Shown: positions 6,715 through 63,194 of the stretch, one piece after another
Layout of the letters: the number at the start of each line of letters is the position of its first letter
Numbering within the stretch: the stretch's first letter is position 1
From: Chiloscyllium plagiosum
Taxonomy: Eukaryota
DNA length: 64,000 nt
Direction: 5' to 3'
Assembly: GCF_004010195.1 (NCBI RefSeq)
Contig: NC_057757.1
Coordinates: 9,915,768-9,979,767, forward strand
The notes under the pieces: generated by a model
Database searches by the model: none
What the model was told of the DNA's origin: nothing
Seen by the model: the letters and a program-made list of their open reading frames with translations, nothing else
Made by a program: the position numbers and the translations under genes

Positions 6715-7385
6715 GAGTCATGGAATATAGAGCTGTACAACATGGGAACAGACCCTTCGGTCCAACCTGCCCATGTCAACCAGATATCCCAAATTAATCT
6801 AGTCCTATTTGCCAACATTTGGCCCACATCCCTTCCTATTCATTTACCCATTCAAATGCCTTTTAAAAGATGTAATTGTACCAGCCTCCACCACCTCCTT
6901 TAGCATGCATCATCCTCTTCATGAAAACGTTGACCCTTAGGTTCCTTTTAAATCTTTCACCTCTCACCTTAAACCTATGCCTTCCAGTTTTTGACTCCCC
7001 TATCCTGGGGAAAAGACCTTGACTATTCACCCTACCTGTGCCCCTCATGATTTTATAAACCTCTATAAGGTCACCCCTCAGCCTCCGATGCTCCAGAGAA
7101 AACAGCTGCAGTCTATTCAGCCTCTCCCTATAGCTCAAAACCCCCCATCCCTGGCAACATCCTTGTAGTCATGATTCGGAGATGCCGGTGTTGGACTGGG
7201 GTGTACAAAGTTAAAAATCACACAACACCAGGTTATGTGCTTCCAATTAAACCTGTTGGACTATAACCTGATGTTGTGTGATTTTTAACTTTGAACATCC
7301 TTGTAAATCTTTTCTGAACCCTTTCAAGTTTCACAACACCTTTGGATAGCAAGGAGGCCAGAATTGAACGATGTACTCCAAATGT
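6715..7385 (-). mobile_element. CR1 3' fragment with a PLE hairpin insertion
   Basis: ORF remnant SYRERLNRLQLFSLEHRRLRGDLIEVYKIM. Confidence 0.9.
7168..7293 (-). mobile_element. Penelope-derived mini hairpin element (family B)
   Basis: Inverted arms CAAAGTTAAAAATCACACAACACCAGGTTAT and ATAACCTGATGTTGTGTGATTTTTAACTTTG, with the tail on the left. 12-bp TSD AACATCCTTGTA at 7156-7167 and 7294-7305. Confidence 0.85.
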
Positions 7386-8924
7386 GGAATGTTTATAAGC
7401 ATCACACAGGCACATCTACGTGCACTTCCAGGGCTCCCCACCTCCCTGAAAATGATGTAGCCTCATGGGAGCAAGAGGAGATGTGTGAGATTTTTAACAA
7501 GATTCTTCCTGCGAGTGCCTTGATTGTTTAAGCACTTTACCACTCAGAGTAATCCTCCGGATTCCAAAATGGTCTGTGTGTGCGCTCCAGTGGCACTGAA
7601 GGTATCAGTTGGCCTTGGCAGCCTTTATGAGGGTGCCTCTGTGTATGCATTGCTGCAGTACTGAAGGTTCCAGGTGCAATGATGTCAGCACCAGTGCATG
7701 CACAGACTGCCATGTCCTCATTCCACCTTCATTTGTATTTGAAAGTGACACCCAATACCCTGTGGTGCCTTGACCACTTCCTCTTGCACTGCCTCCCCAT
7801 TCCTCACCCCCATTTAGTCCAGAATAGGGGACATGTGCTTCGTGCTGTCAATTTCAATCCCATTTTAGTGGTTGATTTAGCAAAAATTGTTTCTTCAATT
7901 GCTGACTGTTTTGATTAATTATTTAACTCGCGGCAGTGCTGCAGTAAACAAGCTGTTGCTTTTCTGCCAGTCTTTTGTATTATTAATCTTCCAAATGTTT
8001 TCAGGGATCAGTCTACTGGACAACACCCAAATAACATGCAACCCCCAAAAAAAACTCCATCGTAACTGTCAGTTTTCTGTTTTGATTGAAATGTTTTCAC
8101 TTACTACAGTCATCATAAAAGTTTTCATCACTTCTGAATAACATTTGCTGTTTGAGTCACTAATGGTTGCCATTGGACCATTTGAATTAGTATTCAAATT
8201 AGATTTATTGTGACATGTATATCATGTGTGCCAAGTGTTGCCATACTCCTGCACCATCTTGAAACTCAGAATATAATGCAAACTTTTACTACAACAGAGT
8301 TAATCTTTCCCTCTTCTTCTTGTTACCCTCTGCTACTTCCCCATTCGCTGCTCGACCGTCCTCAACAAAAGCCTGGTTTGGGCATGTCCCTACCTCTGGC
8401 TCAAGAGACTCCAGGTTCAAGACTTGCCAGTTCCAGAGTTGTGTAATAACATCTTTGGACAGGTTGACTAGGAAAACAGCTGGGAAGCCCAACCCCAATG
8501 TGATTTTGTAAATACAGGCTCTTAGTCATTTCATTGCCTGTTTTAAGTGAAGTGGATTGACCATTGTGTTTGCACAAAAACCAAGCTAACAAATTCAATA
8601 GAGGCCAATCTGACTTTAATATCTCAATACAATTTCATGGTATTTCAGATATAATTATAGTCATCAATTTAGTAATTGATGAATAGTATTATCATTTCAA
8701 TCTCTTCAGGCCAGATTACAAACCTGGAAGACAGAGCCGATGATAGAATAAGACTGGGAATGTATGAGACTGGAGAAATGATTTCAGGAAATACAGTGCC
8801 TGAGGTGAAAGAGAAATGAGTGGTGGGAGACGACAGTGGGGAGGAGTAAGCAGTGAGAGAGAATGAAGGAGGGAAAGACACATGTTCACAGGTCCTGTGT
8901 ATGACTGGACAACTCGGTCAGAGG

Positions 8925-9835
8925 GTCATTGAGATGTACAGCACAGAAACAAACCCTTCCATCCAACACGTCAATGCTGACCAAATATTCTCCATTAATC
9001 TAATCCTATTTGCCAGCCTTTGGCCCATATCCCTATGAATCCTTTTTACTGATATACCATCCAGATGCCTTTCAAATTTGTAATTGTACCAGCCTCCACC
9101 ACATCCTCTGGTAGCTCATTCCATACATGCACCACTGTCTGCGTGAAAAAGTTGCCCCTTAGGTTCTTTTTAAAAGCTTTTTCCCTCTCTGACCCTAAAC
9201 CTATGCCCTCTAGTTTTGCACTTCCTTACCTTAGGGAAAAGACCTAGTCTATTCACCTTATGATGCCCCCTCATGATCTTATAAACTTCTGTAAGTTCCC
9301 TCCTCAGATTGCATTGCTCCAGTGAAAATAGCCCAGCCTATTCAGAATACTTATCCTTTCCATGCCCTTCATGGTTTAATAAACCTCAAAAAGGTCACCC
9401 CTTAGTTTCTGATGCTCCAGGGAAAATAACTCTAGTCTATTCAGTTTCTTCCTGTAGCTCAAACCCTCCAATCCTGGTAACATCCTTATAAATATTTTCT
9501 AACTCTTTCAAGTTTCACAACATCTTTCCTATAGCAGGGACACCAGAATGAATGCAATATTCCAAAAGTGGCCCAATTGATGTCCTGTACAGCTGCAACA
9601 TGACCTCCCAACTCCTATACTTGACCAATAAAGGAAAGCATACCAAACGCCTTCTTCACTATCCTGTCTACCTGCAACTCTATTTTCAAAGAGCTAAGAA
9701 CCTGCTCCCCAAGGTCTCTTTGTTCAGCAACAGTTCCCAGGCCTTGCCATTAACTGTCTAAGTCCTGCCCTGATTTGCCTTTCCAAAATGCAACACCTCA
9801 CAATTATATAAATTCAACTCCCCCTGCCATGCATC
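8925..9835 (-). mobile_element. CR1 3' fragments
   Basis: CR1 3' UTR and ORF2 C-terminal remnants, with about 100 bp represented twice near 9250-9440. Confidence 0.85.
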
Positions 9836-10904
9836 GCAACATGGGTGAGCTTTCAGCAAGAGGTGATGGATTGGGAGGTGCAAAGTTCTGAGGCCAGAGC
9901 AAAATGACACCTCTGTCTGTCGACTGCAGTGTATCACATTATAAACTCATACTCCTAGTTTGCAAAGTCAGATTTTCTTATTTGATTTCCAAATGACGTT
10001 TGTACTCTCGGGTATGGCCATCTCCTGACTTCTGCCTAGTTTGACATTTAGTGAATAGACAGTGATCATCAGCCAAAGCTTATCGCCACTGAGACTATAT
10101 GTGAATCAATAAAATCAGGGGCTCCTGTTTTGTCAGTGCTAACTGGTGCAAGTGCTCTGGAAGCAGATTAAACTTCCATCGCACAATATTTCTTAGCATT
10201 TCAAATGCGTACACAAGATGAAAGAATTTATAGGGCATTGATTTTCTTTTAATGGTCAACCATTACAGATGATCTTTTCAATATGGTTTATTGAGAACAA
10301 ACTTGCTGAGGTGGGGAGTAAGTAATTACAATGAGCTGTAAGTATGTCAGACCGGTGACAGAGCTGGGTACAAAGAATTGTGTTCGAATAAAACTGGCAT
10401 CTTGTCCAATTAAGATCAGTTGCTCCTATAATGAAGACGGATTAATTGTGATAGGGGTTTCTTTTGAATGTTAATCCATCGGAGGAGGTGGGCTGTAGTA
10501 ATTACAGGGAAATTACCAGCAGGAGACATTACAAAGCATCTGCTCTTCCGAAAAAGCAGAAACCTAATGAGCCAATTTCCACTTCCTGGTGGTAGAAGGA
10601 TGTCTTTCATTAGAATCACATTCATAGAGGCTCTGATGAAGAATAGATTGCCTCTGTCTGATTCCCCCCCAGATTAATTAATGAAAAAAAGGATGATAAT
10701 TTGAAATGAAACTCCTCATGAGTCTCCTTTTCTATTCCACACAGGTCTTTATATCGACCCCTTTTCTGTCATCATCAATGTGTTGGCATTAAATACTTTT
10801 CTTGTTATTACAAGCAGCTATGTTAGTCTGTGCTGAAAGAAGTCTGAGAGCAGTGTGTATCTCTCTAAATTCTGACAACCCAGCTCAGATAATCTGAAAA
10901 TACA

Positions 10905-13267: not shown

Positions 13268-13445
13268 AAAGTCAAAAGTCACACAACATCAGGTTATAAT
13301 CCAACAGGTGTATTTGAAATCATAAGCCTTCTGAGCGCTGCTCCTTCATCAGAAATCTTGTGATTTCAAACAAACCTGTTGAACTGTAATCTGGTGACTT
13401 GTGACTTTGTCCATCCCAGTCCAACCCTGAAGTTTCCACATCATC
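13268..13445 (+). mobile_element. Penelope-derived hairpin element (family B) with a degenerate minus-strand hammerhead
   Basis: Inverted arms with the tail GTCCATCCCAGTCCAAC on the right. The minus strand reads CTGATGAAGGAGCAGCGCTCAGAAGGCTT. Confidence 0.75.
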
Positions 13446-14529: not shown

Positions 14530-15590
14530 TGAGTCATAGAGTGGTAGAGTCTTGGAACTGTACAGCACAGAAACAGACCCTTCGGTCCAACACATCCATG
14601 CTGACCAGATAACCTAAACTAATCTAGTCCTATTTGTCAGCATTTGGCTGATATCCCTCATGTACCCATCCAGATGCCTTTTAAATGTTGTAATTGTACC
14701 CACTTCCACCATTTTCTCTGGCAGCTCATTCCATGCACGCACTACCCTTTGCATGCAAATGTTGCCCCATAGGTACCTTGCAAATCTTTCCCCTCTCACC
14801 TTAAACCTATACCCTCTAGTTTTGGCCTCTCCTACCATGGAAAAAAGACCTTGTTCTTTCATCCTATCAATGTCCCCTCATGATTTTATAAACCTAGATA
14901 AGTTCACTCCTTGGTCTCTGTTGCTCCGGGAAAATAGCTCCAACCTATTCAGCCTCTCTTTATAACTGAAACCATCTAATACTAGGAACATCATTGTAAA
15001 TCTTTTCTGCATCCTCTCAAGTTTAACAACATTGTTCCAAAGCAGGGAGACCCGAATTGAATGCAGTATTCCAAAAGTGGCCTAACTAATGTCCAGTGCA
15101 GATTAGAGTGGTGCTGGAAAAGCCTTTGTAGAGAGAGGAGGATAACTTCTTCAAGGTAGGCATCCTTGGAAGAGGATTTGCACTAAGGTTAAAATCAGCT
15201 AGGCGAAAGTGCTTTTCCAGCACCACTCTAATCTTGTCTCTAATGTCCAGCGTATGCAGTACTCACTTTTGCCAATGTCCAGTACAGCCACAACATGTCC
15301 TCCTAACTTCTACACTCAATACATTGATCAATACAAGCAAGTGTACCAAACACCTTCTTCATTCTGTCTATTTGTGACTCTACTTTCAAGGAATTATGCA
15401 TTTGCACCTCAAGATCTCTTTGTAAAGCAACACTCCCCAGGACCCTACTATTAGGTGTTTACATCCTGCCCTGATTTACCTTTCCAAAATGCAACACATC
15501 ACGTTTAACTAAATTAAACTTCATCTGCCATTCCTTGGTCCATTGGCCCATCCAATCAAAGTCCCATTGTGCTCTGAGGTAATGTTCTTC
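14530..15590 (-). mobile_element. CR1 3' fragment
   Basis: TRGYRFKVRGERF and WQMKFNLVK ORF2 remnants. Confidence 0.9.
15102..15273 (+). mobile_element. Penelope-derived mini element (family A)
   Basis: Inverted arms GATTAGAGTGGTGCTGGAAAAGC and GCTTTTCCAGCACCACTCTAATC plus a tail. TSD AATGTCCAGT(G/A)CAG at 15088-15101 and 15274-15287. Confidence 0.8.
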
Positions 15591-15819
15591 ACTAGGGTCA
15601 TAAGATAGTGGGAGATGGATTCTCCAGAGAGAAAGCACTGTTAACATTTTAGATCCAGTGACCCTTCAGAAAGAATCTGTTTTCCCAGCATTTTCTGATT
15701 TTCAGCATCTGTCGTTCTTTGGAAGCTAGGTCCTTGTTCGTCAGGGAAATCAAAGATAACCAGGGTTAGATGGGAATGTGGAATTCGCAACATAAATAGA
15801 TTAGTCATGATTTTATTGT

Positions 15820-16015
15820 TAGAAGTTACATGACACTACGTTATAGTCCAACAGGTTTATATGAAATCTCAAGCTTTCAGAGCTTAGGGACTTCACCTGA
15901 CGAGGGAGCAATGTTCTGAAAGCTTGTGATTTCAAATAAACCTGTTGAACTATAACTTGATATTATGTGTCTTCTGACTTTGTCCACCCCAGTCCAAAAC
16001 CGGCACCTCCACGCC
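15820..16015 (+). mobile_element. Penelope-derived hairpin element (family B)
   Basis: Inverted arms and a tail, flanked by the imperfect repeat CATGATTTTATTG / CATAGTTTTATTG. Confidence 0.8.
15893..15929 (+). ncRNA. Minimal type I hammerhead ribozyme motif
   Basis: TCAC-CTGACGA-G-GGAGC AAT GTTCT-GAAA-GCTT-GTGA. Stem I TCAC/GTGA is perfect, the core is intact, and stem III is the palindrome AAGCTT. Confidence 0.7.
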
Positions 16016-16299: not shown

Positions 16300-17048
16300 A
16301 TGGTAAGGTAATGGTAAGGCCACACCTGGAGTATTGTGTCCAGGTTTGGTCTCCTTACTTGAGGAAGTTAAAAATCACACAACACCAGGTTATAGTCCAA
16401 CAGGTTAAAGGAGCAGTGCTCTAAAAGCTAGTGCTTCCAATTAAACCTGTTGGTCTATAAGCTGGTGTTGTGTGGTTTTTAACTTTGTGTACCACAGACT
16501 AAAACACACACATCTCCAAATAATTACTTGAGGAAGGATGTGATGGCACTGGAGCCAGTTCAGAGGAGGGTCACCGGGTTGATTCCAGGCATGAAAGGGC
16601 TGACAAACAAGGAGCGATGAATATCTTGGGCTCGCACTTGCTGGTGGGCGTGGGGAATCTGATTGAAGCAGATAAAACGCTCAAGGGGATTGATAAGGTG
16701 GATGTTGAACAGATCTTCTTCCTCATGGGACAGTCTCGAATAGGAGGACCTCGATACAGAGCAAGGGGAGATAGGTTCAAAACTGAGGTGAGGAGAAACG
16801 GCTTCTTTCAGAGGGTGGTGAATCTGTGGAACTCACTGCCCAAGAGTGCAGTGGAGGCAGAATCAATTAATCAAGATTTAAGAAAGAAATAGATATGTTT
16901 CTGATGAAAAGCAGGATAAAAGGGATATGGAGAGGAGGCAGGAAAGTGGAGTTGAGATCAGGATAGGATCAGCCATGATCATGATAAATGGTGGAGTGGG
17001 CTCAAAGTGCTGAATTGACTACTCCCGCTGTTAGTTCCTATGTTCCTA
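16300..17048 (+). mobile_element. CR1 3' fragment
   Basis: [12 protein letters not shown] and FFQRVVNLWNSLP remnants, with a 3' UTR ending TTCCTATGTTCCTAT. Confidence 0.9.
16368..16523 (+). mobile_element. Penelope-derived hairpin element (family B)
   Basis: Inverted arms and a 13-bp TSD TTACTTGAGGAAG at 16355-16367 and 16524-16536. Confidence 0.85.
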
Positions 17049-25982: not shown

Positions 25983-25986
25983 AGAT

Positions 25987-27676: not shown

Positions 27677-27694
27677 ATATGCACACCATAATTT

Positions 27695-34192: not shown

Positions 34193-34239
34193 TAGATTGT
34201 AAATGAATTGCATTGATCAGCATACTTTCAGTAGCCTTT

Positions 34240-35452
34240 CTGGTGACTGACTCAACACGGACATATAGTTCAAACCCACCGACTCCCACAGCTACCTGGA
34301 CTACACCTCCTCCCACCCTGCCTCCTGCAAAAACGCTATCCCTTATTCCCAATTCCTCTGCCTCTGCTGCATCTACTTCCAGAAGCACCAATTCCACCAT
34401 AGAACACCCGAGATGACCTCCTTCTTCAGGAACCACAATTTCCCCTCCCACATGGTCAATGATGCCCTCCAGCACATATACTCCATTTCCTGCACCTCCG
34501 TCCTTGAACCCCACCCCTGCAATCGCAACAAGGACAGAATTCCCCGATCCTCACCTTCCACCCACCAACCTCTGGGGACAACTCATCATTCTTCACCATT
34601 TCTGCCACCTACAAACAGACCCCACCACCAGGGATACATTTCCCTCCCTACCCATATCTGTGTTCTGGAGAGACCATTCCGTCTACGACTCCCTTGTTAG
34701 GTCTACACCTCCCACCAACCCACCCGGCACCTTCCCCTGGCACCATAGGAAGTGCAAAGCCTGCACCCACACCTCCCCCCCTCACCTCCGTCCAAGGCCC
34801 CAAAGGATCCTTCCACAGCAGACACAGATTTTCTGGCACTTCCATACACGTCATCTACTGTGTCCACTGCTCTCGATGTGGTCTCTTCTACACTGGGGAG
34901 ACAGGGCGCCAACTTGCGGAATGTTTCAGAGAACACCTCTGGGACACCTGCACTAAACAACCCCACCACTCCATGGCTGAACACTTTAACTCCACCTCCC
35001 ACTCCGCCAAGGACATGCAAGTCCTTGGCCTCCTCACTGCCAAACCTGGAGGAAAAACCCGACCCCTGGAGGAAAAACACCTCATCTTTTGCCTCTAACC
35101 TCCAACCCTATGGGACCAATGTTGATTTCACCAGTTTCCGTATCTCCCCTGCCCCCACTTTATACCAGGTCCAACCCTCTATCTCAGCATAGCTCTCTTG
35201 AACTGTCCTACCTGTCTATCTTCTTTCCCACCTATCCGATCCACAATCCTCTCTGACTTATCACTATCTCCCACACCTCCATCTACTATTGCATTCCCAG
35301 CTACCTTCCCCCCAGCCCCACCCCTTTCCTATTTATCTCTCAGCTCCCTTGGGCCTCCCCCACATTCCTGATGAAGAGCTTATGCTCAAAATGTCGACTC
35401 TCCTGCGCCTCAATTGCTGCCTGACCGGCTGTATTTTTCCAACACCACACTC
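34240..35452 (+). mobile_element. Penelope-like element (family A, Neptune-like), RT C-terminus plus GIY-YIG endonuclease, decayed
   Basis: FKPTDSHSYLDYTSSHP..CKNAIPYSQF, C-x2-C linker, VIYCVHCSRCGLFYTGETGRQLAECFREHL. The 3' end has CTGATGAAGAGCTTATGCTCAAAATGTC at 35368. Confidence 0.92.
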
Positions 35453-36374
35453 TTTGGCTACTTTTAACAGCCTTGTCTATCATTACTGATTGCCAATCAT
35501 TCCTGAGTATTATTTGCTTATGTTGCAGGGACATATTTCAGTTATCCCTCTATCCCCTGCCTCAGAATAAAACACATTGGAGACTTCATTACACCAGAAA
35601 TAATCAATAATCTCCTGCTTTTTTATATTTTGCTTCACAATCTCCGAGCCATCAGTTCTGAACACGGTGTTTTACGGCTCTCTCCGGGGTTGTTTGTCAC
35701 TGATGTAGGATTTTGTCGCTCCTATGTGTGTCTGTGTAGAGGAATCATATTTTCCACTGCCTGAAGGGAAATGAGTTCAGGCCTGGATATATCCGTTGTC
35801 AGTATTGCTGACTAGATTGCAATAAATTATAAACCTACTGAGAGGACTTGTTCTGTTCTCAAACACAAAACCATGTGTGTTCACCATAGATGTGCAGGAA
35901 TGTGATTTGAAACAACCTCCCCATCTTGACTGCAGTGAAATCTGCCTGGTCGGTCTGCCACTGGGGAGGGTGGAAGCTAATTGACCTGTACTGCTCAATA
36001 CTTCCCCACTCCAGCAGCAATCGCCTCCTATTAAATCCTTAATGAAAGGCAACATGCCAGCAGCTGGGAGCCTGTGCATTCTCATCTCACTCTGAAATGA
36101 GCTGTCGCCACATTTGTCTGATCTGCAGCAATCAAGTATTCATTGAAGCATGGAGGAATGGAATGAGGGACAAAGGAATTAGGAGAGACTAGAAGGGTCT
36201 TTGTGCTGCAGTAGTATTATCCCTGTCTCTGGACTGGGAAGATTCAAGTCCAACCTGCTCCAGAGATGGTGGTAACATCTCTGAACAAATATGTAATAAC
36301 ATCTCTGAGCAGGTTGTTGAGAAAAAAATGGGTTAAAAATATGTCTGTGAACAGCATCCAGCAGTTCTCAGAAT

Positions 36375-36463
36375 CGAAACAGAAATTGCTGGAAAAGCTC
36401 AACAGGTCTGGCAGCATCTTGGAGTGAAATCAGAATTTCAGGTCAAGTGATCCTTCTCAGAAT
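36375..36463 (-). mobile_element. Penelope 3' terminal fragment
   Basis: GCTGGAAAAGCTCAACAGGTCTGGCAGCATC motif, bounded by the direct repeat TTCTCAGAAT at 36365-36374 and 36454-36463. Confidence 0.65.
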
Positions 36464-36927: not shown

Positions 36928-37072
36928 AGGTTTTGTATCAGATCTTGGTTTTAAATGAACCTGTTTGAGCCACTAGCAGGATCTCCTCCTTTCTTCTTCA
37001 AAATAATACAAGGGGATATTTTGTAATCACAAAGAGGGGGATAATAAGAGCCTCAGTTTATCTCTGTATGTG

Positions 37073-37160
37073 GTAAAAACAATGACTGCAAATGCTGGAA
37101 ACCAGATTCTGGATTAGTGGTGCTGGAAGAGCACAGCAGTTCAGGCAGCATCCAAGGAGC
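37073..37160 (-). mobile_element. 88-bp Penelope family A 3' terminus inserted into a DeuSINE fragment
   Basis: Perfect 14-bp TSD TATCTCTGTATGTG at 37059-37072 and 37161-37174. Confidence 0.85.
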
Positions 37161-37489
37161 TATCTCTGTATGTGTGAACTGCTATCTCTGTCAGTGCAGC
37201 ACACTGCACTCGTACACGCACACTTTGGACTCAGGGGCAAAAAAGTGCTGAGCTGTGACTGATACAACATAGCTGTTCACATGAGACCACATGAGGCAGG
37301 AGACTCCCCTTACGGAACGCTGTGGGAAGCAGGGAAATAGAATCCATCACTTGGATCTGCCAGCTTTTCCCAGTGCAGCCCACTGTGAGATGAGCCTTAC
37401 TCAAGGTGGCACCACACACTTTGGTAACCCCAAGTGGCCCTGTGAAACATAGATGATTTGGAGTTGGGAACCACGTGTAGTGTGTAAAA

Positions 37490-41244: not shown

Positions 41245-41410
41245 TAGGCAAAAGTGAGGACTACAGATGCTGGAGATTGGAGTTGAGAGTGTGGTGCTGG
41301 AAAAGCACAGCAGGTCAGGCAGCATACTAAGGAGCAGGAGAATCGACGTTTTAGGCAAAAGCCCTCCATCAGGAATGAGGCTGTGAGGCAAGGGGAGGTG
41401 AGATAAATTA
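41245..41410 (-). mobile_element. Penelope family A 3' fragment at the site of a CR1 internal deletion
   Basis: Tail plus GTGGTGCTGGAAAAGCACAGCAGGTCAGGCAGCAT and a mutated hammerhead core. Confidence 0.8.
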
Positions 41411-44865: not shown

Positions 44866-45001
44866 TAATTAAGTCACAAGTTAAAGCAACTATTGAAGTG
44901 AAACTAAATTCATTTTTTCAGACTGGAAGTGTTCTCTTTTCTGCACAGAACAGAAACAGACCAATCAGCTAATTGCTACTGGGCAAACATACATTTACAC
45001 A

Positions 45002-45946
45002 TAAGGTAAAAACAATGACTGCAGTTGCTGGAAACCATATTCAGGATTAGAGTGGTGCTGGAAAAGCACAGCAGTTCAGGCAGCATCCGAGGAGCAGGAA
45101 AATCAACGTTTCGGGCAAAAACCCTTCATCAGGAATACAGGCAGAGTGCCTGAAGGGTGGAGAGATAAGTGAGAGGAGGGTGGGGGTGTGGAGAAAGTAG
45201 CATAGAGTACAATAGGTGAGTGAGGAAGGGGATGAAGGTGATAGGTCAGGGCGGAGGGAGGGGGCGTGGAGTGGATAGGTGGAATAGAAGATAGGACAAG
45301 TCATGGGGACAGTGCTGAGCTGGAAGTTTGGAACTGGGGTGAGGTTGGGGAAATGAGGAAACTGTTGAAGTTCACATTGGTGCCTTGGGGTTGAAGTGTT
45401 CTGAGGCAGAAGATGAGGCGTTCTTCCTCCGGGGGTCGGGTGCTGAGGAAGCGGTGGTGAAGGAGACCCAGGACCTGCATGTCCTCGGCTGAGTGGGAGG
45501 GGGAGTTGAAATGTTGGGCCACAGGGCGTGTAGTTGATTGGTGCGGGTGTCCCAGAAATGTTCCCTAAAGCGCTCAGGTAGGAGTCGTCCTGTCTCCCCA
45601 ATGTAGAGGAGACCGCATCTGGAGCAACGGATGCAATAAATGATATTAGTGCAGGTAAAACGTTGATGGATATGGAAGGCTCCTTTTGGTCCTTGGATGG
45701 AGGTGAGGGAGGAGGTGTGAGCGCAGGTTTTGCAATTCCTGAGGTGACAGGGGAAGGTGCCAGGGAGGGTGGGTTGTTGAGGGGACGTGGACCTGACCAG
45801 GTAGTCATGGAGGGAACGGAAGGCGGAAAGGGTGGGGAGGGAAATATATCCCTGGTGGTGGGGTCCGTTTGGACGTGGCGGAAATGTCGTCAGATGTGGT
45901 AAAAACAATGACTGCAGATGCTGGAAACCAGGTAAAAACAATGACC
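45002..45946 (-). mobile_element. Penelope family A element (GIY-YIG domain plus 3' end) with reiterated 3' ends at its 5' junction
   Basis: CHLRNCKTC..IIYCIRCSRCGLLYIGETGRLLPERFREH. 12-bp TSD TACATTTACACA at 44990-45001 and 45947-45958. Confidence 0.92.
45101..45137 (-). ncRNA. Minimal hammerhead ribozyme motif
   Basis: Minus strand TATTC-CTGATGA-A-GGGT TTTT GCCC-GAAA-CGTT-GATT. Confidence 0.65.
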
Positions 45947-46190
45947 TACATTTACACACAGCCCTTGGCTCGAGGTTGTGTGCAGCCACAGTTTGAATAA
46001 GCAGCTATGAACAGCGGTTCCTCTGAGTGCCAGGATACTTGCTTCCAAAACATGCAGTAATCTTTCAGCAATGCTCAGTTATAAAAACAGTTCTTTTCCT
46101 ATTGCAGTCCACAGTCAAAAATGCAGAAAAAGAAAAAGACACCTTGCTATCGGGAAGGATGTTATTAAACTGGAAAGAGTGCAGAAGAAA

Positions 46191-51575: not shown

Positions 51576-52322
51576 GACACTTGTCTCATTTCACATTGCT
51601 TCAGTGTCTTTACATGTTTAGATACCAGACAAACGGGAGGCTGGAAGAACACAGCAAGCCAGGCAGCAGCAGGAGGTGGAGAAGTCAACGTTTCAAATAT
51701 AACCCTGCTTCAGGACCTGGAGAACAAATTTCAGAGTTAAATGGAGAGCTGATTTCAGCTTTCAGCTTCAGGTAGACTCTTGAGATGGTGATCTAACTGG
51801 TTTGACATTGGAGTTGATTAGTCTGCGATTTGAATGCTATAGCAAATAGTCACACTAATTATATTCACATAAAGAACGCCATATTTTAGACATGCAATTC
51901 AGCCCATCCTCAAAAGTAAAATGTTTACAATGCTTGACTAAACCATTTACAAGTTTTTTTACTTTCATCCTTCATTAAGTTTTTCAGAGGAATGGTTTGG
52001 AATTGTTATTTTTCCTGGTCACTGTTATTCCTGAAAATTGGACAGAATATCTGTTGCTGCCCATCTAATAATTGTCTTATGACAAAATGGAGATGCATAC
52101 AGTTCCTCACGGACAGAGTTTGCATTGTTTAATCATTGCCATATGTTGGGTTGGAAATTATATCCAACCGGCCTTTGAAAATATGTGACACTGATCAGTT
52201 ACACATCTCATTCTAATCAAGTCAACCTTCCTATGTAATTCACTGCCTTTCTCATGTTGTATGTCATCCTCTGTGATATCCCTTCATTCTGGAACTCTTC
52301 AAAGTATCTTCAAGAATTGTGG

Positions 52323-52546: not shown

Positions 52547-53049
52547 TTCAAATATTATGGGCCTGAATCAGTTCACTCAACTTGATATCTGCAGAAATAT
52601 TGACTTCATTCCAAAAAGAATTTGAGGGTTTTTTTTTTGGTTAGTTTTAGAGTATGATAGATTAATAAATGTCACAGGAGACAAATTAAATGTCAGTTTT
52701 TGGTGTTATTAAGAGGTGGAGGAATGATTGCGTGTGGAAATGGTGGCACAGCTGTTTAAGTTTTCCTCTTGTCTTGGTTGCTGTTGCTGATGACTGTTGC
52801 TGATTGTTGTACGGCAATCACTGGTTGTAGATGATTTTTTAAAAAACCTGATTAAATTCAATTTAAACTTAGGTTAGCACTGATCAGTTGGCGACAGTCT
52901 AGCTTTTACTGTTGGAAGGCTCTAGGTCCAACTCACTCTAAACATCAGCATCCTAGAATGATACTGAATAAATGTTTTTTGAGGTGCAACGTCTTGATTT
53001 ATTTCTTGTTTGCCCTTATTTACCCTCCCCCTTAAGGTATAATTGTAGA

Positions 53050-53290
53050 AGATGCATCACCTGCCCTTCGACCTCCCGTCTTCTCACTAGTCAAGGCCCC
53101 AAGTATTCCTTTTAAGTGATTAAATTGTACTTCTTTCAATTTAGTACACTGTATTCATTGCTCACAATGTGGATTCCTCTGTAGACCAAACACAGGCAAG
53201 GTAACTGCTTTCAGAATCACCTCAGGTTTGTTGACAAGCGCAACTCCAAGGTTCTGATCATTCGTCAGTTTAGTCCTCCATCTTGTTAAG
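53050..53290 (+). mobile_element. Highly decayed Penelope GIY-YIG fragment
   Basis: CTSFNLVHCIHCSQCGFL remnant homologous to 34850-34890. Confidence 0.6.
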
Positions 53291-53319
53291 ATGCTGACTT
53301 TAAGGACATTGTTGCATTG

Positions 53320-54300
53320 GTGTTGTAGTTCAGAGAAGATTCACTTGGCTGATTCCTGGAAACAACCACATATGCACAGGTTGAACATGTTGTGCCTATA
53401 CGCACTAGCATTTAAAATAATATGAAGTAATCTTGTTTGAACATAGAAAATTTCTATTAGGATGCTGATTTGCTCATAAGGCCTTAATCTAGAGTACTAT
53501 TTACAGTTTTGGTTTCCTTACTTGAGAAAGGATGTATTGGCACTGGAGGGGGTGCAGACAGGTTCACTAGGTTGATCCTGGAGTGGAGAGAGTTGGCATG
53601 TGAGGAGCAATTCATTGGAACTTAGAAGAATGGGGGAGGGGGGGATCTCATAGAAACATATAACATTATGAAGGGAATAGATAAGATAGAAGCAGGGAGG
53701 TTGTTTGCACTGGTGCGTGAAAATAGAAGTAGGGAGCATAGCCTCAAAATAAGGAGGATCAGATTCAGAACTGAGTTAAGGAGGAATGTCTTCACCCAAA
53801 GGGTTGTGAATCTGTGGAATTTCCTGCCCAGAGAAGCAGTTGAGACTACTTTATTGAATGTTTTTAAGGCAAAGATAGATAGATTTTTGAACAGTAAAGG
53901 AATTAAGGATTACTGTGAGAGGGCGGGTAAGTGGAGCTGAGTCCAGGAAAAGATCAGCCATGATCTTATTGAATGGTGGAGCAGGCTCAATGGGCCAGAT
54001 GGCCTACTCCGACTCTTATTTCTGATGTTTTTATGTAGATCTAGTTGTTTCAAATAAGGGGTTCCCTACATAAGAAGGGGATGAGGAGGAATCTCATCTT
54101 TCAGAGGGTGATGAATGTTTGGAGTTTAGTCCCCCATTACGCAGTGCAGGATGGACCATTGAAATGTTAAAGACTGAGTTAGATGGAGTTTTGATTGACA
54201 AGGAAGTGAAGGGTATGAAGGCCAGACAGGCCCTAAGGCCTCAATTAGAATTACCTGGGGCCTACCTCTGTCCCCATTTCCTATCTTCTTATGTAATGCC
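53320..54300 (+). mobile_element. Nested CR1 3' fragments
   Basis: ORF 53668..53940 reads FTQRVVNLWNFLP. Confidence 0.85.
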
Positions 54301-54818
54301 TATTATCTGAAAATGGTGCAATGGACAATTACTCAAATATATTAGAAGCAAATGCTATTGACACCTTGTCTCGACATTATCTGAGCATCTAATTTAATCA
54401 TCTCTGGTACCAATTTAGTTTCGCCTGATTAAATGTTGACTGAAATCTCATTCTAAATCTTAGTATCCCCATGAATTTGAATATTAAAACTTGTCCAATC
54501 TAATAGTTATTGACTAACTATATTGCAGACAGTTGTTAAGATGTATCATTCCTTGCCATGTAACTATTATACCTGTCTATTTTGTTTATCCTGTGTTCCA
54601 GATAATTGATTTGTTCTTTGAAGCTCGATTGATTCATTTCAATTGCGTTTATAGATTCACTGGTATGTAATGGAAGGCTGGAGTGTGTATACTGTTTGTA
54701 TTGTCTTCTGAAAACTGTCGATTGTTAGCACTTTTCTCACCTGTGACACTCAAACCAACAACTTCAAACAGCAAGGCCTACAAACCTACAAACTCAAATA
54801 GCCTTCAAAACTCTTGAC

Positions 54819-55033
54819 CTGAAAATGTGTTGCTGGAAAAGCGCAGCAGGTCAGGCAGCATCCAAGGAACAGGAGAATCAATGTTTTGGGCATAAGCCCT
54901 TCTTCAGGAATGAGGAAAGTGTGTCCAGCAGGCTAAGATAAAAGGTAGGGAGGAGGGACTTGGGGGAGGGGCGTTGGAAATGTGATAGGTGGAAGGAGGT
55001 CAAGGTAAGGGTGATAGGCCGGAGTGGGGTGGG
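54819..55033 (-). mobile_element. Penelope family A 3' fragment
   Basis: Nearly identical to 56006-56140 and to the reverse complement of 56341-56520. Confidence 0.85.
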
Positions 55034-55858
55034 CACGAAGAGGGCTAAAAAGGGTCATGAAATAGCTTTAGCAAACAGAGTTAAGGAAAATCCCAAAGCC
55101 TTTTATTCATATATAAGGATCAAAAGGGTAACTGCTGAAAGGGCTGACCCACTCAACGACAAAAGAGGAAAGATATGCGTAGCCTCAGAGAAGATTGATG
55201 AGATTCTTAATAAGTACTTTGCATCGGTATTCACCAAGGAAAGGGACATGGCAGATGGTGAGGTTAGGGATAGGTGTTTGATAACTCTAGGTCAAGTCAG
55301 CATGAGGAGGCAGCAAGTGTTGGTCTGGTCGCCACATTACCAAAAGGATGTAGATGCTTTGGAGAGGGTGTGGAGGAGGTTCACCAGGATGTTGCCTGGT
55401 ATGGAGAGCACTAGCTATGAAGAGAGGTTGAGTAGATTAGGATTATTTTCATTAGAAAGACAGAGGTTGAGGGGGGACCTGATTGAGGTCTACAAAATAG
55501 TGAGAGGTAGAGACAGGGTGGATACCAAGAAGCTTTTTCGCAGAGTTCGGAACTCAAATTACTAGGGGTCACGAGTTCAAGGTGAGAGGGTAAAGGTTTA
55601 GAGGTGATATACATGGAAAGTTCTTTATGCAGAGGGTGCTGGGTGTCGGGAAAGCATTGCCAGAGGAGATGGTAGAGGTGGGCTCGATAGCGTCATTTAA
55701 GATGTATCTAGACAGATACATGAATGGACAGGGAGCAAAGGGATACAGATCCTTAGGAAATATGTGGCAAGTTTACCTCAAGGATTTGGATCAGTGCAGG
55801 CTTGGAGGTCTGAAGGGCCTGTTCCTGTGCTGTAATTTTCTTTGTTCTTTGTTCTTCT
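55034..55858 (+). mobile_element. CR1 ORF2 fragment with a large internal deletion and 3' end
   Basis: KRAKKGHEIALANRVKENPKAFY is joined directly to VWSPHYQKDVDALERV. Confidence 0.9.
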
Positions 55859-56005
55859 TGTTCTATACAGACAGTTGCCCGTGGCTTGAATTGAACCCAG
55901 GTCTGTGAGGCAGCAGTGCCATCCCTGACTGATATCTTCCCTCATTTTCTACCTTTAAGGCACTTCTTAAAGCTTAGTCCCCTTTGACCAAGCTTTTGAT
56001 CATCC

Positions 56006-56555
56006 CTTCTTCAGGAATGAGGAAAGTGTGTCCAGCAGGCTAAGATAAAGGTAGGGAGGAGGGACTTGGGGGAGGAGCGTTGGAAATGCGATAGGTGGAA
56101 GGAGGTCAAGGTGAGGGTGATAGGCCGGAGTGGGGTGGGAGCGGAGAGGTCAGGAAGAAGATTGCAGGTTAGGAAGGCGGTGCTGAGTTCGAGGGATTTG
56201 ACTGAGACAAGGTGGGGGGGGGGGGAAATGAGGAAACTGGAGAAATCTGAGTTCATCCCTTGTGGTTGGAGGGTTCCTAGGCGGAAGATGAGGCGCTCTT
56301 CCTCCAACCATCATGTTGCTATGGTCTGGCGATGGAGGATCCTCCTTCCACCTATCGCATTTCCAACACGCCCCCCCAAGTCCCTCCTCCTACCTTTTAT
56401 CTTAGTCTGCTTGGCACACTCTCCTCATTCCTGAAGAATGGCTCATGCCCGAAACGTCGATTCTCCTGCTCCTTGGATGCTGCCTGACCTGCTGCGCTTT
56501 TCCAGCAACACATTTTCAGCTCTGATCTCCAGCATCTGCAACCCTCACTTTCTCC
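56006..56555. mobile_element. Penelope family A inverted pair (minus 56006-56338; plus 56341-56555)
   Basis: EEERLIFRLGTLQPQGMN on minus. The plus arm ends in the tail CTCTGATCTCCAGCATCTGCAACCCTCACTTTCTCC. Confidence 0.88.
56427..56462 (+). ncRNA. Minimal hammerhead ribozyme motif
   Basis: ATTC-CTGAAGA-A-TGGC TCAT GCCC-GAAA-CGTC-GATT, with a canonical GUC cleavage triplet. Confidence 0.65.
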
Positions 56556-57112
56556 TTTCCCCAATTTAGCAAATTTCCTTTTGGGTCACTCTTGTCTTTG
56601 TCCATGAGTATTCTAAAACTTACAGAATTGTGATCACTATTCCCAAAGTAATCCTGTACTGAAACTTCAACCACCTTGCCGGGCTCATTCCCCAATACCA
56701 GGCCCCTTTCCAAATTGGGCTATTTACATACTGCTCTAAAAAAACGCTCCTGGATGCTCCTTACAAATTCTGCTCCATCCAGACCTCCAACACTAAATGA
56801 ATCCCAGTCTATGTTGGGAAAATTAAAATCTCCCATCACTATCACCCTATTGCTCCTACATCTTTCCATAATCTGTTTACATATTATCTCAAGTTCGCTG
56901 CTGGGAGGCCTGTAGTACAGCCCCAACATTGTTACCACGCCCTTCTTCTGCCCATATTGTTTCACTTCTGAGTCCTCCATAGTGCTCTCCTTCAGCACAG
57001 CTGTGATATCCTCTCTGACCATTAATGCAACTCCTTCACCCCTTTTACCTCCGTCTCTATCCAGCCTGAAGCATCTTTATTGTTATATTTAGTTGTTAAT
57101 CTTGCCCTTCCC

Positions 57113-58746: not shown

Positions 58747-59504
58747 ATTACCTGGAGCCTTAATCTGTAATTCTTTATAAGCACTGCCCTCTCTTCCTAT
58801 TCCCTGTAAATAGTGATGAATAATGAAGCCTGCTAAAGCTCATTGCAAACATATAAGCCTCACATTCCTCCATGCTAGAGCAATGACTGGATCCATGGCA
58901 CCAGAAGCAAAATGGCAGGAAAGGCCTGAGTGAAGCCCACAGATGGTACAGTGATATAGGGAAATAGGAGTCAGCCCAATGATCCACCCCAAAAGTGCAG
59001 GGTGGGGATAGCACCTGACAAGAAGCTCATTGGTGATAGGGATCAAACTGCAGAGAGCAAAAGCCCATGCAAAAGCTGGGAGACCACAGCAGAAGGAACA
59101 GAGCAGGGAGTGTGAGAAACGACAAGTAAACAAGACATACAAAACCTAACTCAGCCTCTGAGAGTAAATGATTAGAGTGAATTGAAGGAACTTTCAGTGG
59201 TGGGGTAGGGACATAAAATCAGAAAATCCACCATCTATACGACAAGGCACGGCCGATTCCATTAAAGAATCCCTTTGGCAGGAAAGCAGCCAAGTCAATT
59301 TTAGAGAGAGTCTCAAGTGCAAAGAGAGACACCAGAGCATAGATGCAGCAGCTACGTAGAAAATTAACCACAGCAGTCTGTGGGCACCCTGGCAGCAGGA
59401 GGCACCCAAGAGCTGGATGAAGTCTTCCTGGGGAAGGTGGCAGGTCCACCTGAACTCTCTGACTTGGGAAGACCCATAGAATGAGCTCTTGTATGCTGGA
59501 GTGG

Positions 59505-59925
59505 ATAAAGCGTGGCGCTGGAAAGCAGAGCAGGTCAAGCAGCATCTGAGGAGCAAGAGAGTCAACATTTCAGTCTTACCCCTTCATCAGGTCTGGGAAG
59601 GGGGAAGGTGGCTGAGAGATAAGTGGGAGAGTGGGTATAGGTCTACGGGAAAAGTAGTTGGGATGGCGATAGTTGGGTGAAGGTAGATGAGGTGTTCCTC
59701 CTCCAGTTGGGGGTGGTGTTGGGTAGGTGGTGGAGGAGGCCCAGAATGGACATGTCTTCAGGGGAGGGGGAGGGGGAATTTGAAATGTATGGCTACAGGA
59801 AGGTGGGGTCGGTTGGTGCGTATGGACTAGAAATATTCCCTGAAATGTTTCATGGGACAAGTTTGTGTCCGGTCTCTCCGATGTAGAGGAGACCACATTG
59901 CTAGTAATGGATGGAGTGAATGAGA
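59505..59925 (-). mobile_element. Decayed Penelope family A fragment
   Basis: GLLYIGETG-like remnant near 59870-59895 and a 3' end with CCTTCATCAGG. Confidence 0.75.
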
Positions 59926-60019
59926 TATGTTGGGAAAAACTAACTCGCAATAATATTGTGGAGGCTGAATTTGTGTATTAGTTTCTTAGAGCTATACAGG
60001 GCAACCACTTTATCTGTTG

Positions 60020-60516
60020 TGGTTCTGTTCGCCGAGCAGGAAGTTTTTGTTGCAAACGTTTCGTCCCCTGGCTAGGCGACATCATCAGTGCTTGGGAGCC
60101 TCCTGCGAAGCGCTTCTTTGATGTTTCCTCCGGTGTTTATAGTGGTCTGTCCCTGCCGCTTCGGGTTGTCAGTTTCAGCTGTCCGCTGTAATGGTTGGTA
60201 TATTGGGTCCAGGTCGATGTGTTTGTTGATGGAATTTGTGGATGAATGCCATGCCTCTAAGAATTCCCTGGCTGTTCTCTGTCTGGCTTGCCCTATGATA
60301 GTAGTGTTGTCCCAGAAGGCAAATGTGCTAAACCCCACTACATTCGTCTTGCTCATGTTGGGTATCGGGTCCTTCGTTCTGGTGAGTTGTTGTCTGAGCA
60401 ACATGAATTCGACTGGGACAACAACTGGGACGAAACGTTTGCAACAAAAACTTCCAGCTCGGCGAACAGAACCACAACAACGAGCACCCGAGCTACAAAT
60501 CTTCGCACAAACTTTG
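60020..60516 (-). mobile_element. Penelope family C (Poseidon/Penelope-like), internally deleted GIY-YIG segment, inverted terminal arm and 37-nt tail
   Basis: LTRTKDPIP..KTNVV / FWDNTTII..REFLEAWHS..SINKHIDLDPIY. Arms at about 60015-60068 and 60428-60480. 17-bp TSD AACCACTTTATCTGTTG at 60003-60019 and 60517-60533. Confidence 0.9.
60051..60092 (-). ncRNA. Hammerhead ribozyme motif (best preserved copy)
   Basis: Minus strand GCA-CTGATGA-T-GTCGCCT AGCC AGGGGAC-GAAA-CGTT-TGC: stem I GCA/TGC, 6 of 7 pairs in stem II, and palindromic AACGTT in stem III. Confidence 0.75.
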
Positions 60517-61810: not shown

Positions 61811-62358
61811 CACTCTTCAGATCTTACATAAACAATATGAATCAGTATTCTGTTGGATGCAAGAGAAAAAGGAATGGATTGTCTTGGTGGTTGATGCTGC
61901 AGTGAAGAAAATTCTTCAACCTCCCTTCATTGAATGTTGGGGCAGAGCAGATATTAAAGTCTAACTGAGAGGAGAAATGCTTGCTACCCATTGTTACATT
62001 GAAAGAGAGATCACAGAGACCCTGTCTATGTTTCCTAACCACTATTCATCATTTTATTCTTACATGGGATGTAGGTGTCACATGTTTCCCTTCGCTAACT
62101 GAAATATTCCAGAGTGCCATTCTGTTCAAGAAGGCAGTCAACAGTTAACCACATTTCCTAGGTGTGGAGTCACCAGACTAGGGAAGGATGGCAGATTTCC
62201 TTCCCTAAAGGACAGTACTCCATATAAGGTAGCAGTGGTGCCAGTATGTCTGACAAACCACCATGACACCTCCCTTATTTGGTCAATGCAGGAGGCTGCA
62301 GGTTACAGGTTACAGGACAGCTCACACAATTTTTAATCTAGGTCAGAGTTTAAACTAG

Positions 62359-62535
62359 AGCTGAAATTGTGTTGCTGGAGAAGAGCAGCAGGTCAGGCAG
62401 CATCCAAGGAGCAGGAGAATTGACGTTTCAGGCATGAGCCCTTCTTCAAGAATTCCTGAAGAATTCGTGCTGCGCTTTTTCAGCAACACATTTTTCAGCT
62501 CTGATCTCCAGCATCTGCAGTCCTCACTTTCTCCC
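62359..62535 (+). mobile_element. Penelope-derived hairpin (family A)
   Basis: Inverted arms centred on GAATTC, with a tail. 15-bp TSD CAGAGTTTA(A/G)ACTAG at 62344-62358 and 62536-62550. Confidence 0.85.
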
Positions 62536-63194
62536 CAGAGTTTAGACTAGCTTAACCAAAGTCTGTAGCAGATTCGATTGTATCACTTAACCAGCGTCCT
62601 AGCTATTTCCCCTGCTGGCCACCTGACCGCATCCCCATTGTCTTTCCTGAGTGAACGTTCCTTTTCTTAAAGGAAGTAAAGCTGAGGTAAAATAGTTTAC
62701 TTATTGCATAGAATCTACCAACAACAACTCTGGAGACTGTCTGATGAAGAGGCTCCTTGCAGTGTAGGAAGTCAGACCACTTACAGAGAAGCAGGAACAA
62801 AACTTCATTCTAGTTCAATCATCAGTGGATGTAAATGAGGCTCAAAGTAATCCTGCAGCTCAACAAATTGGCCACAGTATGAGATCTCTTGGATTATGGA
62901 GTTAGAGACAGGTCTTCAATTACAAGACAGTGGTCTCACAGCTCTGACGTAGATTCATGAACACGGATGCTTTGAGCAGGGTGGAAAACACCTGACCTGC
63001 ATCAACGGAAGGTAAACTTTCTGCAACCTATCTTTCCAATCATGGAAAGAAAGCATTAATACAAATTTGATATATTTGGAGAATTACTTTAAACTTCAGG
63101 AAAGACCCATCAAGAAGAAATCAATGACTACAAGGAGAAAGGAAGTGGCTAAACAAGATACAGGACATGCTCAAGTCCAAATTTGGATCATGGG

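Follow-up and report, generated by a model that had tools for sequence, protein, structure and literature searches.

Small hairpin repeats in a Chiloscyllium plagiosum genomic window: probable truncated insertions of Penelope-like elements

Results and Discussion

Hairpin Repeats in the Window

We analyzed a window of 64,000 nucleotides of Chiloscyllium plagiosum (contig NC_057757.1, positions 9,915,768 to 9,979,767). Twenty-one segments derived from Penelope-like elements (PLEs) were found, and they cover 10.7% of the window (Table 1). The 12 copies named in the original prediction, in families A, B and C, were all located where it had placed them, and every one forms a local inverted repeat. 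Nine or more related copies had been missed, none of them a local fold-back. The three families are dissimilar in primary sequence, as had been claimed (no blastn match >9 nt among them).

Arm-to-arm identity in the listed fold-back copies was 76–100%. Every one of the 12 hairpins has exactly one tail, which measured 34–40 nt in nine copies, in agreement with the predicted length of about 33–40 nt. The tail-less arm ends near the tail start in 11 of the 12; the exception is A56006, in which the 3' end of the left arm is missing. In about half of the hairpins the tailed arm exceeds the tail-less one in length, and in the others it is shorter, so either arm order occurs. The listed copies are 126–608 bp long, not 90–400 bp, and the description as non-coding fails for A29550, A56006 and C60020, which contain GIY-YIG coding sequence.

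Table 1. PLE-derived segments of the window (positions are those of the window; fractions are matched positions of the target-site duplication, TSD).
Feature	Position	Strand	TSD or flanking repeat	Structure
B7168	7156..7305	-	7156-7167 / 7294-7305 (12/12)	tail 7168-7205; tailed arm up to 7236; tail-less arm 7237-7293 begins precisely at hammerhead cut site; hammerhead absent
B13268	13268..13445	+	not found	inverted arm without tail 13268-13352, its mutated hammerhead beginning at C3; tailed arm from 13353
A15102	15088..15287	+	15088-15101 / 15274-15287 (13/14)	22-nt inverted arm; 87-nt spacer 15124-15210; arm and 40-nt tail; hammerhead absent
B15820	15806..16027	+	weak (11/13)	inverted arm 15819-15883; tailed arm from 15884 with complete minimal hammerhead motif 15897-15925
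B16368	16355..16536	+	13/13	inverted arm 16368-16406; tailed arm from 16408 without CUGA box
B18285	18286..18480	-	not found	left-end tail; 10-bp palindrome at joint 18382-18402; mutated hammerhead 18400-18428
B19749	19735..20167	+	13/14	longest B copy; tail ends 20153; hammerheads 19782-19810 (minus) and 20038-20066 (plus), G12 mutated in both
A29550	29538..30171	+	12 identical, 16/18	inverted arm 29558-29852; sense piece from 29854 with GIY-YIG C-terminus, arm and tail; internal deletion within sense piece, ending near cut site (30059)
Family-A copy (unlisted)	34233..35449	+		RT thumb, CX4CxxC linker, GIY-YIG remnant, 3' region; mutated hammerhead 35368-35395; tail and inversion absent
A-related stub	36365..36463	-	10-bp direct repeat	5' end at hammerhead 5' edge; tail and inversion absent
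Hammerhead-bearing segment	36855..36935	-		core 36895-36924, stem II GAGTC/GATTC; boundaries approximate
Family-A stub	37059..37174	-	14/14	88 bp; tail; inversion and hammerhead absent
Family-A copy	41246..41407	-	no clear TSD	tail; mutated hammerhead; inversion absent
Family-A copy	44990..45958	-	12-bp direct repeat 44990-45001 / 45947-45958	putative Neptune-type linker and GIY-YIG 45372-45895; intact hammerhead 45105-45132; tandem pair of additional tail-only pieces 45901-45946
A-related stub	51597..51713	-	8-nt repeat overlapping hammerhead 5' edge	
A52323	52322..52546	-	degenerate at best	divergent A-related subfamily; left-end tail; two mutated hammerheads that meet close to their 5' edges
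Family-A tail-less arm	54816..55033	-		mutated hammerhead; possible relation to A56006
A56006	56004..56556	+	absent	inverted piece 56004-56340 with GIY-YIG end; 12-nt palindrome at joint; tail ends 56556; hammerhead 56431-56458 in sense piece, first stem II pair broken
Old family-A copy	59500..59940	-		GIY-YIG remnant; hammerhead 59564-59590
C60020	60003..60533	+	17/17	inverted piece 60020-60398 (putative Poseidon-type GIY-YIG remnant, internally deleted); short sense ORF piece 60396-60422; arm followed by 37-nt tail; intact hammerhead 60055-60088 overlapping last codons of ORF
A62359	62344..62550	+	14/15	inverted arm 62359-62453 with C3-mutated hammerhead; tailed arm 62468-62535; 11-nt fold-back piece besides the two arms

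Link to Penelope-Like Coding Sequence

Family A is continuous with RT/GIY-YIG remnants, apparently of Neptune type, at 34233-35095, 45288-45895, 29854-30049, 56188-56340 and 59649-59930. They match proteins P0001-P0006, and the Pfam GIY-YIG match (E 1.8e-4) is slightly below the curated cut-off. Family C matches the RT-bearing protein P0008 (aa 311-462, E 5e-43). The assignment to PLEs is thus shown for families A and C through GIY-YIG coding sequence. For family B it is likely; no ORF was found in any of its six window copies, and tblastn of PLE proteins matched none of them.

A CX2-5CxxC linker between RT and endonuclease is, by the definition in PMC8557442, a trait of Neptune/Nematis. It is present in the 45372-46004 frame of family A and in P0001. 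This motif, and Neptune being the clade reported for vertebrates, suggest that family A is Neptune-type. The linker before GIY-YIG is absent from P0008, P0009, P0017 and the family-C window piece, by which family C would be Poseidon-type (Penelope/Poseidon clade); the cysteine stretch itself is deleted in C60020.

Hammerhead Motifs

Four mismatch-free cores with paired stems were found in the window, compared with 0–1 per shuffle in 10 shuffles. The label "hammerhead-bearing" is correct for each family but not for most copies. Only 4 of the 12 have an unmutated core (B15820, A29550, A56006 and C60020), and stem II is broken in two of these four; the motif is absent from B7168 and A15102, the CUGA box is absent from B16368, and the core is mutated in five copies. 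The reading as minimal type I hammerheads holds for families A and C and probably extends to B. Stem II pairing was kept in 57 of 64 cells (16 anchored motifs, one mis-anchored row left out). For the proposed covariation, the independent families number only 3–4. The GAGTC/GATTC version of stem II does exist but lies outside the listed copies. Stem I has 2–4 pairs, short of the ~6-bp stem I in the canonical hammerhead of non-LTR retrozymes.

The active hammerhead fold was not consistently obtained among the lowest-energy folds of monomers and dimers, and in B15820 the motif is buried in a long stem. It is likely that the hammerhead comes with the pseudo-LTR, is dead or missing in most stubs, and is not needed for making them. 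No hammerhead was matched in Rfam up to an E value of 5. Three family-B copies gave sub-threshold miRNA matches in Rfam.

Target-Site Duplications and Empty Sites

The predicted layout with flanking TSDs was strong in 7 of the 12 copies (12–17 bp, score ≥11; 2 of 300 random boundary pairs reached this score) and weak in two (B15820 and A52323). No TSD was found at the boundaries of the other three (B13268, B18285 and A56006). Uninterrupted paralogues of the host repeat, overlapping by exactly the TSD length, were found for B7168 (6/6), A15102 (3/4) and B16368 (3/3), which shows that the target was duplicated upon insertion. For the remaining 11 of the 14 elements in this test, no paralogue across both flanks was found. 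The small hairpin repeats of families A and C are genuine TSD-flanked stubs of PLEs, and those of family B are likely to be so too.

Inversion Joints, 3' Ends and 5' Ends

All 11 simple inversion joints in the window differ from one another. A15102 has a spacer instead, which is probably the antisense of sequence beyond the tail; a protein search of it was uninformative. We also surveyed relatives of family A in related shark sequence (best word share 0.51), where joints are visible only inside 260 nt at 85% likeness. Among the best 15 of 61 joint rows, with some joints in X1 uncounted, seven opposite-strand joints occurred in 1–3 contigs each (depth 13–59, against 16–19 for long single-copy contigs) and five go-back joints in 1–2 contigs each.

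Loose 3' ends piled up at the tail end, 56556, with 844, 877, 559 and 133 records in X1, X9, X21 and X17; their flanks are unrelated (agreement 0.33–0.45). A second pile lies at the tail start (56511-56516), about 40 nt from the first. The pile at 56512 partly resembles a subfamily sequence variant and not true ends. The distance from cut site to tail end is +77 in family C, about +87 to +95 in B and +98 in A.

Among 36 segment 5' ends, 11 fall at −43 to −20, the hammerhead 5' edge, and one at +1, the cut site (12 of 5000 sliding-zone simulations were equally extreme). These ends were delimited by hand and are non-independent (the 11 come from eight elements), three are 1–3 nt off, and the zone was picked post hoc. 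In X21, 168 loose ends lie at 56427 (−32), and the cut site 56459 has no row among the best 24 of 870 loose-end rows. The clustering suggests that copying reached the start of an uncut transcript.

Origin of the Hairpins

The best explanation, which we hold with good confidence, is that the copies are 5'-truncated, TSD-flanked insertions of endonuclease-bearing PLEs (family B likely included), with the hairpin likely assembled anew at each insertion. An RT-GIY-YIG protein, predicted to act as a dimer, would cut both target strands 12–17 bp apart. One cut end would prime at a start site at the tail end of the element RNA and the other at the tail start, after which the two short cDNAs would be joined head to head, in many cases with the help of microhomology. 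These start sites would lie only ~80–130 nt from a likely transcript start just upstream of the hammerhead; many cDNAs would therefore run off the RNA 5' end and leave stubs. The 5'-end clustering suggests a simple reason why stubs are common. Both the two-ended priming and the transcript start are steps that we infer; in Penelope, transcription starts within the pLTR (PMC8557442). Non-inverted stubs of these families, some tailed and others tail-less, are present as well, together with tandem re-starts of the tail; this is the spread expected of truncation products. Of the two options in the original prediction, stereotyped abortive insertions are backed by the differing joints, the few contigs per family-A joint, the piled 3' ends and the absence of hammerhead-bearing tandem arrays.

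A single cDNA that snaps back (or primes itself on antisense RNA) and is then copied could replace the two priming events and leave the rest unchanged. Arkhipova et al. (PMC3846280) attributed such inversions to self-priming. Palindromes at the joints (10 bp in B18285; 6 bp in A29550, A56006, A62359 and B13268; ≥6 in 28 of 500 random sites) and the 11-nt piece of A62359 are in accord with this idea, which we consider possible but rather unlikely. A snapped-back copy cannot outrun its template, and yet either arm can be the longer one. Moreover, the palindrome is ≤5 bp at 6 of the 11 joints, and A15102 and C60020 contain third segments.

Family B, perhaps with others, might instead be non-autonomous: a short ORF-less RNA (3' region, hammerhead, arm and tail) starting at the hammerhead 5' edge would be copied twice by a PLE dimer acting in trans from the two cut strands, so that a new one-tailed hairpin, its mirror half added, arises at each landing. 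We regard this as improbable. All six family-B copies are ORF-less hairpins of 126–405 bp reaching only −161, whereas five family-A copies reach coding sequence; PLE derivatives of that kind exist (PMC8557442; bioRxiv 10.64898/2026.07.22.740005), and differing joints are compatible with them. However, the 5' ends of the six copies spread from +27 to −161 with no fixed boundary, both arms of B19749 include 130–160 nt of AT-rich upstream sequence, families A and C yield the same short forms from autonomous parents, and six copies are too few to expect one of ORF length. If it were true, shark genomes would amount to a vast natural archive of paired priming and transcript start, sufficient to settle the origin of PLE inversions.

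Some arms may have been copied from hammerhead-cleaved RNA, so that ribozyme cutting set their 5' ends. In B7168, the tail-less arm has its first base at N1.1 (7237), without microhomology, A29550 resumes at the cut site after its deletion, and one X9 contig has an opposite-strand joint at 56459. The lone 5' end at +1, against the cluster at the hammerhead 5' edge, makes this very unlikely. The A29550 deletion is flanked by near-identical short sequences and was left out of the 5'-end count, and 56459 is no site where many molecules begin. In PMC11167929, too, no reads ended at the cut site, and insertion proceeded normally when the ribozyme was dead.

Replication of ready-made hairpins as whole units, in the manner of retrozymes (with RNA that is ribozyme-cut and circular) or MITEs, is hardly credible and for the window already largely refuted: strong folds (−56 to −76 kcal/mol in four copies, without shuffle control) and a plausible hammerhead in two listed copies are outweighed by the differing joints (in family B, those of the six window copies), the lack of any amplified joint among the family-A joints listed, the absence of hammerheads from all 12 tandem-repeat rows, the motif sequestered in the B15820 fold, the short stem I of the motifs, and asymmetric ends with TSDs of 12–17 bp. 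The original prediction had named unique internal junctions in every short copy as grounds to reject an independently replicating family, and the 11 differing joints of the window give that result.

Comparison with Known Systems

The architecture is already known: an inverted truncated copy, a tail of 30–40 nt, a TSD and a minimal hammerhead have each been published for PLEs. Craig et al. 2021 (PMC8557442) draw the same insertion architecture for EN+ PLEs in their Figure 2, and Arkhipova et al. 2013 (PMC3846280) described such insertions with 9–10 bp TSDs and a 31-bp tail. Those complex insertions share with the shark copies head-to-head inverted ends, a tail at a single end, TSDs, common 5' truncation, joints with palindromes or microhomology, and partial tandems. 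The shark copies differ in being mostly 126–600 bp, with little or no ORF, and very dense; their TSDs are 12–17 bp, compared with 8–10 bp in rotifer.

In the portions of Frangieh et al. 2024 (PMC11167929) that were accessible, the Poseidon element PAc of Anolis carolinensis has its cut 26 nt and its RT start 111–118 nt into the ORF, i.e., 85–92 nt apart. Cleavage and extension take place on both strands, two RT start sites enclose the tail, and insertion is normal in hammerhead mutants. The shark copies likewise have the hammerhead ~80–100 nt upstream of the tail end and two 3'-end positions 30–40 nt apart. Family C would also be Poseidon-type and family A Neptune-type; PAc is known from in vitro tests, the shark copies from sequence. 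Those portions leave the inverted arm unexplained and report no 5'-end clustering at the hammerhead 5' edge.

The excerpts of Cervera and de la Pena 2014 (PMC4209133) at hand describe metazoan PLE hammerheads that agree with the shark motifs in the CUGANGA / GAAA core, the single unpaired base ahead of stem II, a first pair of G-C, a short stem I and a palindromic stem III of two bases; there, too, several families share a genome, and opposite-strand pairs lie 100–700 bp apart. Stem II in the shark is mostly 4–5 bp, stem I 2–4 bp and most copies are mutated; sharks are unnamed in those excerpts. Non-LTR retrozymes (Cervera and de la Pena 2020, PMC7229834; Li et al., bioRxiv 10.64898/2026.07.22.740005), present in one chondrichthyan genome, are also short, non-coding and pLTR-derived with a type I hammerhead. 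However, they form head-to-tail tandem units with a hammerhead in each and circular RNAs, whereas the shark hairpins are head-to-head, dispersed, variable in length and have at most one intact motif. Thus, no new kind of system is present, and the useful addition is the 5'-end clustering at the hammerhead 5' edge. Young short copies with clean TSDs are handy material on the origin of PLE inversions and tails.

DNA-transposon MITEs are similarly short, with inverted ends, TSDs and mostly no ORF. MITEs are defined, partly after PMC8969392, by inverted repeats at the two outermost ends and by a structure that is uniform within a family; in the shark hairpins, an unpaired tail lies outside one arm, the interior varies per copy with all joints different, and the TSDs are both long and variable. 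They are linked to an RT-GIY-YIG protein and not to a DDE transposase. PLE-derived hairpins could nevertheless be mislabelled as MITEs or miRNA-like stems.

Architecture of the Hairpin Copies

We studied the copies using the window sequence, public sequencing runs of related sharks and published papers. All 12 hairpin insertions listed in the original prediction (five of family A, six of family B and one of family C) were found, and each of them is a local fold-back, 126–608 bp in length, with arms that are 76%–100% alike. As predicted, each copy has one tail, that is, an unpaired stretch outside one arm, and its length was 34–40 nt in the nine copies measured. The target-site duplications (TSDs) predicted for these copies were strong in seven of the 12, at a score that 2 of 300 random boundary pairs also reached; they were weak in B15820 and A52323 (copies named by family and window start) and absent in B13268, B18285 and A56006. 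Among 14 elements checked for empty sites, a usable paralogue existed for three, which lie in common host repeats, and for none of the other 11. In the uninterrupted paralogues the duplicated stretch was single (6/6 for B7168, 3/4 for A15102 and 3/3 for B16368).

The longest stretch that the three families have in common is at most 9 nt. At least nine unlisted related copies in the window have no local inversion, and examples are included in the table below. The tandem tail-only pieces at the 5' end of one long family-A copy look as if copying had restarted several times at the tail end.

This architecture is known from other Penelope-like elements (PLEs). An inverted truncated copy with a one-sided tail of 30–40 bp is described in PMC8557442, and PMC3846280 reports inverted pseudo-LTRs (pLTRs) that have a TSD, a tail and palindromes at the joint. 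Minimal hammerheads, including opposite-strand pairs 100–700 bp apart, are reported in PMC4209133; the curation guide PMC8969392 names inverted pLTRs, and the whale shark genome paper PMC8455134 has Penelope among its listed elements. We found no paper specifically on shark PLE hairpins, or on PLE stubs mislabelled as MITEs, in a literature search that fell short of most subscription journals. The copies are real, Penelope-derived and of known architecture, in a little-studied lineage.

Family Identity

The coding remnants of the window matched Chiloscyllium, Hemiscyllium and Stegostoma proteins, and the predicted derivation from Penelope was borne out, in families A and C by coding sequence. 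Five family-A copies, two of them among the 12, continue upstream into RT-thumb, CX4CxxC-linker and GIY-YIG sequence, which by the motif definition in PMC8557442 classes the family as Neptune/Nematis-type. Because family C matches residues 311–462 of an RT-bearing protein without the linker, it was assigned as Poseidon-type; both clade labels were set by motif and protein match, not by tree. The family-C hammerhead overlaps the last codons of the ORF. The end geometry of family B is that of A and C, but its six window copies hold no ORF and the frame of the family-B sequence is broken by a stop; its PLE status is inferred. The family-B pattern had no matches among metagenome and viral contigs.

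Three matched proteins (P0012, P0014 and P0015) are isoforms predicted for shark genes (5'-nucleotidase domain protein 1, MAP3K7 and another) with family-C GIY-YIG ends, which would reflect either exonisation or annotation read-through. The listed family-C copy, C60020, is a mosaic. Its inverted arm has lost GIY-YIG sequence internally and contains a short filler; on the sense side the ORF jumps to hammerhead stem II via a repeated 8-mer. The two breaks lie at nearly the same ORF position.

Hammerhead Motifs

Perfect cores with paired stems numbered four in the window vs. 0–1 per shuffle (10 shuffles), and cores with at most two mismatches numbered 17 vs. 4–8. The description of the copies as hammerhead-bearing was upheld in part: four of the 12 have an unmutated core (two of these with a broken stem II), five have core mutations, one is missing the CUGA box and two have no hammerhead. 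Across 16 core-anchored motifs (one mis-anchored row was dropped), 57 of the 64 stem II cells were paired, and the pair types in stems I, II and III vary between families. The stem covariation suggested previously is real, with a base of three or four families only. An Rfam search of the window gave no hammerhead match, and we regard the listed hammerheads as putative ribozymes.

Insertion Mechanism

The copies are best explained as stubs of RT-GIY-YIG elements, probably built anew at each insertion. According to PMC11167929, the protein of PAc, the Anolis carolinensis Poseidon PLE, cuts and extends both target strands and is predicted to form a dimer; its reverse transcription begins at two internal sites bounding the tail, and insertion is independent of hammerhead cleavage. 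The distance from cut site to start in PAc (85–92 nt; PMC11167929) agrees with +77 to +98 in the shark copies, where +1 is the first base past the hammerhead cut. On the model of PAc and the copies, each cut end of the target would prime at one of the two sites, giving one tailed and one tail-less cDNA, which would then join head to head. Penelope transcription starts within the pLTR (PMC8557442), so a transcript starting just upstream of the hammerhead would give cDNAs of 80–130 nt.

The self-priming model put forward for inversions in PMC3846280 is a less likely alternative, and palindromes of 6–10 bp at 5 of 11 joints speak for it (among 500 random sites, 28 have one of 6 bp or more). However, the longer arm is tailed in some hairpins and tail-less in others, and since either arm can exceed the other, two priming events fit better than one fixed snap-back.

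The family-A copy A15102 has a spacer whose first letters agree with the tail end at 8 of 9 positions and then resemble the majority letters behind the tail in the mapped runs. This suggests that its template continued past the tail, and the spacer may be the ORF start. A leucine-rich-repeat protein, the sole match of the 30-residue spacer frame, was rejected as a chance match, leaving the spacer's identity unconfirmed by protein search.

Positions Where Copying Stopped

Of 36 segment 5' ends, 11 fell at −43 to −20, at the 5' edge of the hammerhead, three at −19 to −1, one at +1, eight at +2 to +98 and the other 13 farther upstream. Within the −43 to −20 zone the stop rate was about sevenfold higher, and an equally extreme result came up in 12 of 5000 sliding-zone simulations; this statistic is indicative, as the ends were delimited by hand and are non-independent (the 11 zone ends come from eight elements). 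In run X21, an independent source, 168 loose ends lay at −32, and its top rows included no position at +1.

Copying from ribozyme-cut templates is an unlikely alternative for some arms. The 5' end of B7168 falls right at +1, which is also where a deletion in A29550 stops; one or two cases are insufficient, and this reading is not established. Joint enrichment at the cut site was also weighed and was unsupported.

Joints in the Window and in Related Sharks

The simple inversion joints of the window are distinct in 11 of 11 cases; A15102 has its spacer instead. Four runs from related sharks were mapped to the sense portion of a single family-A copy (56341–56600). A 3'-end pile of 844, 877, 559 and 133 records, respectively, marks the tail end, and a second pile lies at the tail start, 40–45 nt earlier, a subfamily variant apparently making up part of it. 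The joint survey covered family A, not B, in relatives, saw joints within 260 nt only and used the best 15 of 61 joint rows and the best 24 of 870 loose-end rows, with some X1 joints uncounted. The seven opposite-strand joints listed occurred in 1–3 contigs each, at depth 13–59 vs. 16–19 in long single-copy contigs, and the five go-back joints listed in 1–2 contigs each. Thus, a check for shared internal junctions, as put forward in the original prediction, gave distinct joints in the window and few contigs per listed family-A joint in relatives.

Retrozymes are tandem repeats (PMC7229834; bioRxiv 10.64898/2026.07.22.740005), and the retrozyme-like or MITE-like replicating class proposed for the copies fails where testable, because the joints are all distinct and none of the 12 tandem-repeat rows in the window is an array with a hammerhead. 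The reads of X21 map to either strand (peak about 900 vs. 1500) and derive from numerous copies, and are therefore uninformative on dedicated transcription. In each of the two DNA runs, the commonest opposite-strand joint connects tail start to tail end (56516–56555; three contigs each).

Other Features of the Window

Unlisted copies and other elements by window position (single positions are copy starts)
Position	Strand	Feature	Remarks
1–303		Young inverted repeat, cut by window start	Arms 95%–97% alike; no relation to families A–C by blast; sub-threshold miRNA match in Rfam
588–4161	−	Broken ORF1, endonuclease and RT frames	Presumably an L1/Tx1-like element
23228–23266	−	Hammerhead-like motif, long stem II	One core mismatch; outside mapped families; within chance range of the fuzzy scan
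36386		Unlisted copy	No tail, no local inversion
37073		Unlisted copy	Tail and TSD, no local inversion
45007		Unlisted copy	No local inversion; extra tail-only pieces in tandem
45901–45946		Tandem pair of additional tail-only pieces (31 and 15 nt)	5' end of long family-A copy, inside TSD
53047–53340		Very old GIY-YIG remnant	Distant kin of family A; hammerhead search beside it found none
54816–56556		Two family-A pieces, about 91%–93% alike	1 kb apart, LINE-like fragments between; could be a single insertion that was disrupted, or a local re-copy
60298–60440		C60020 (family C)	Four-piece mosaic
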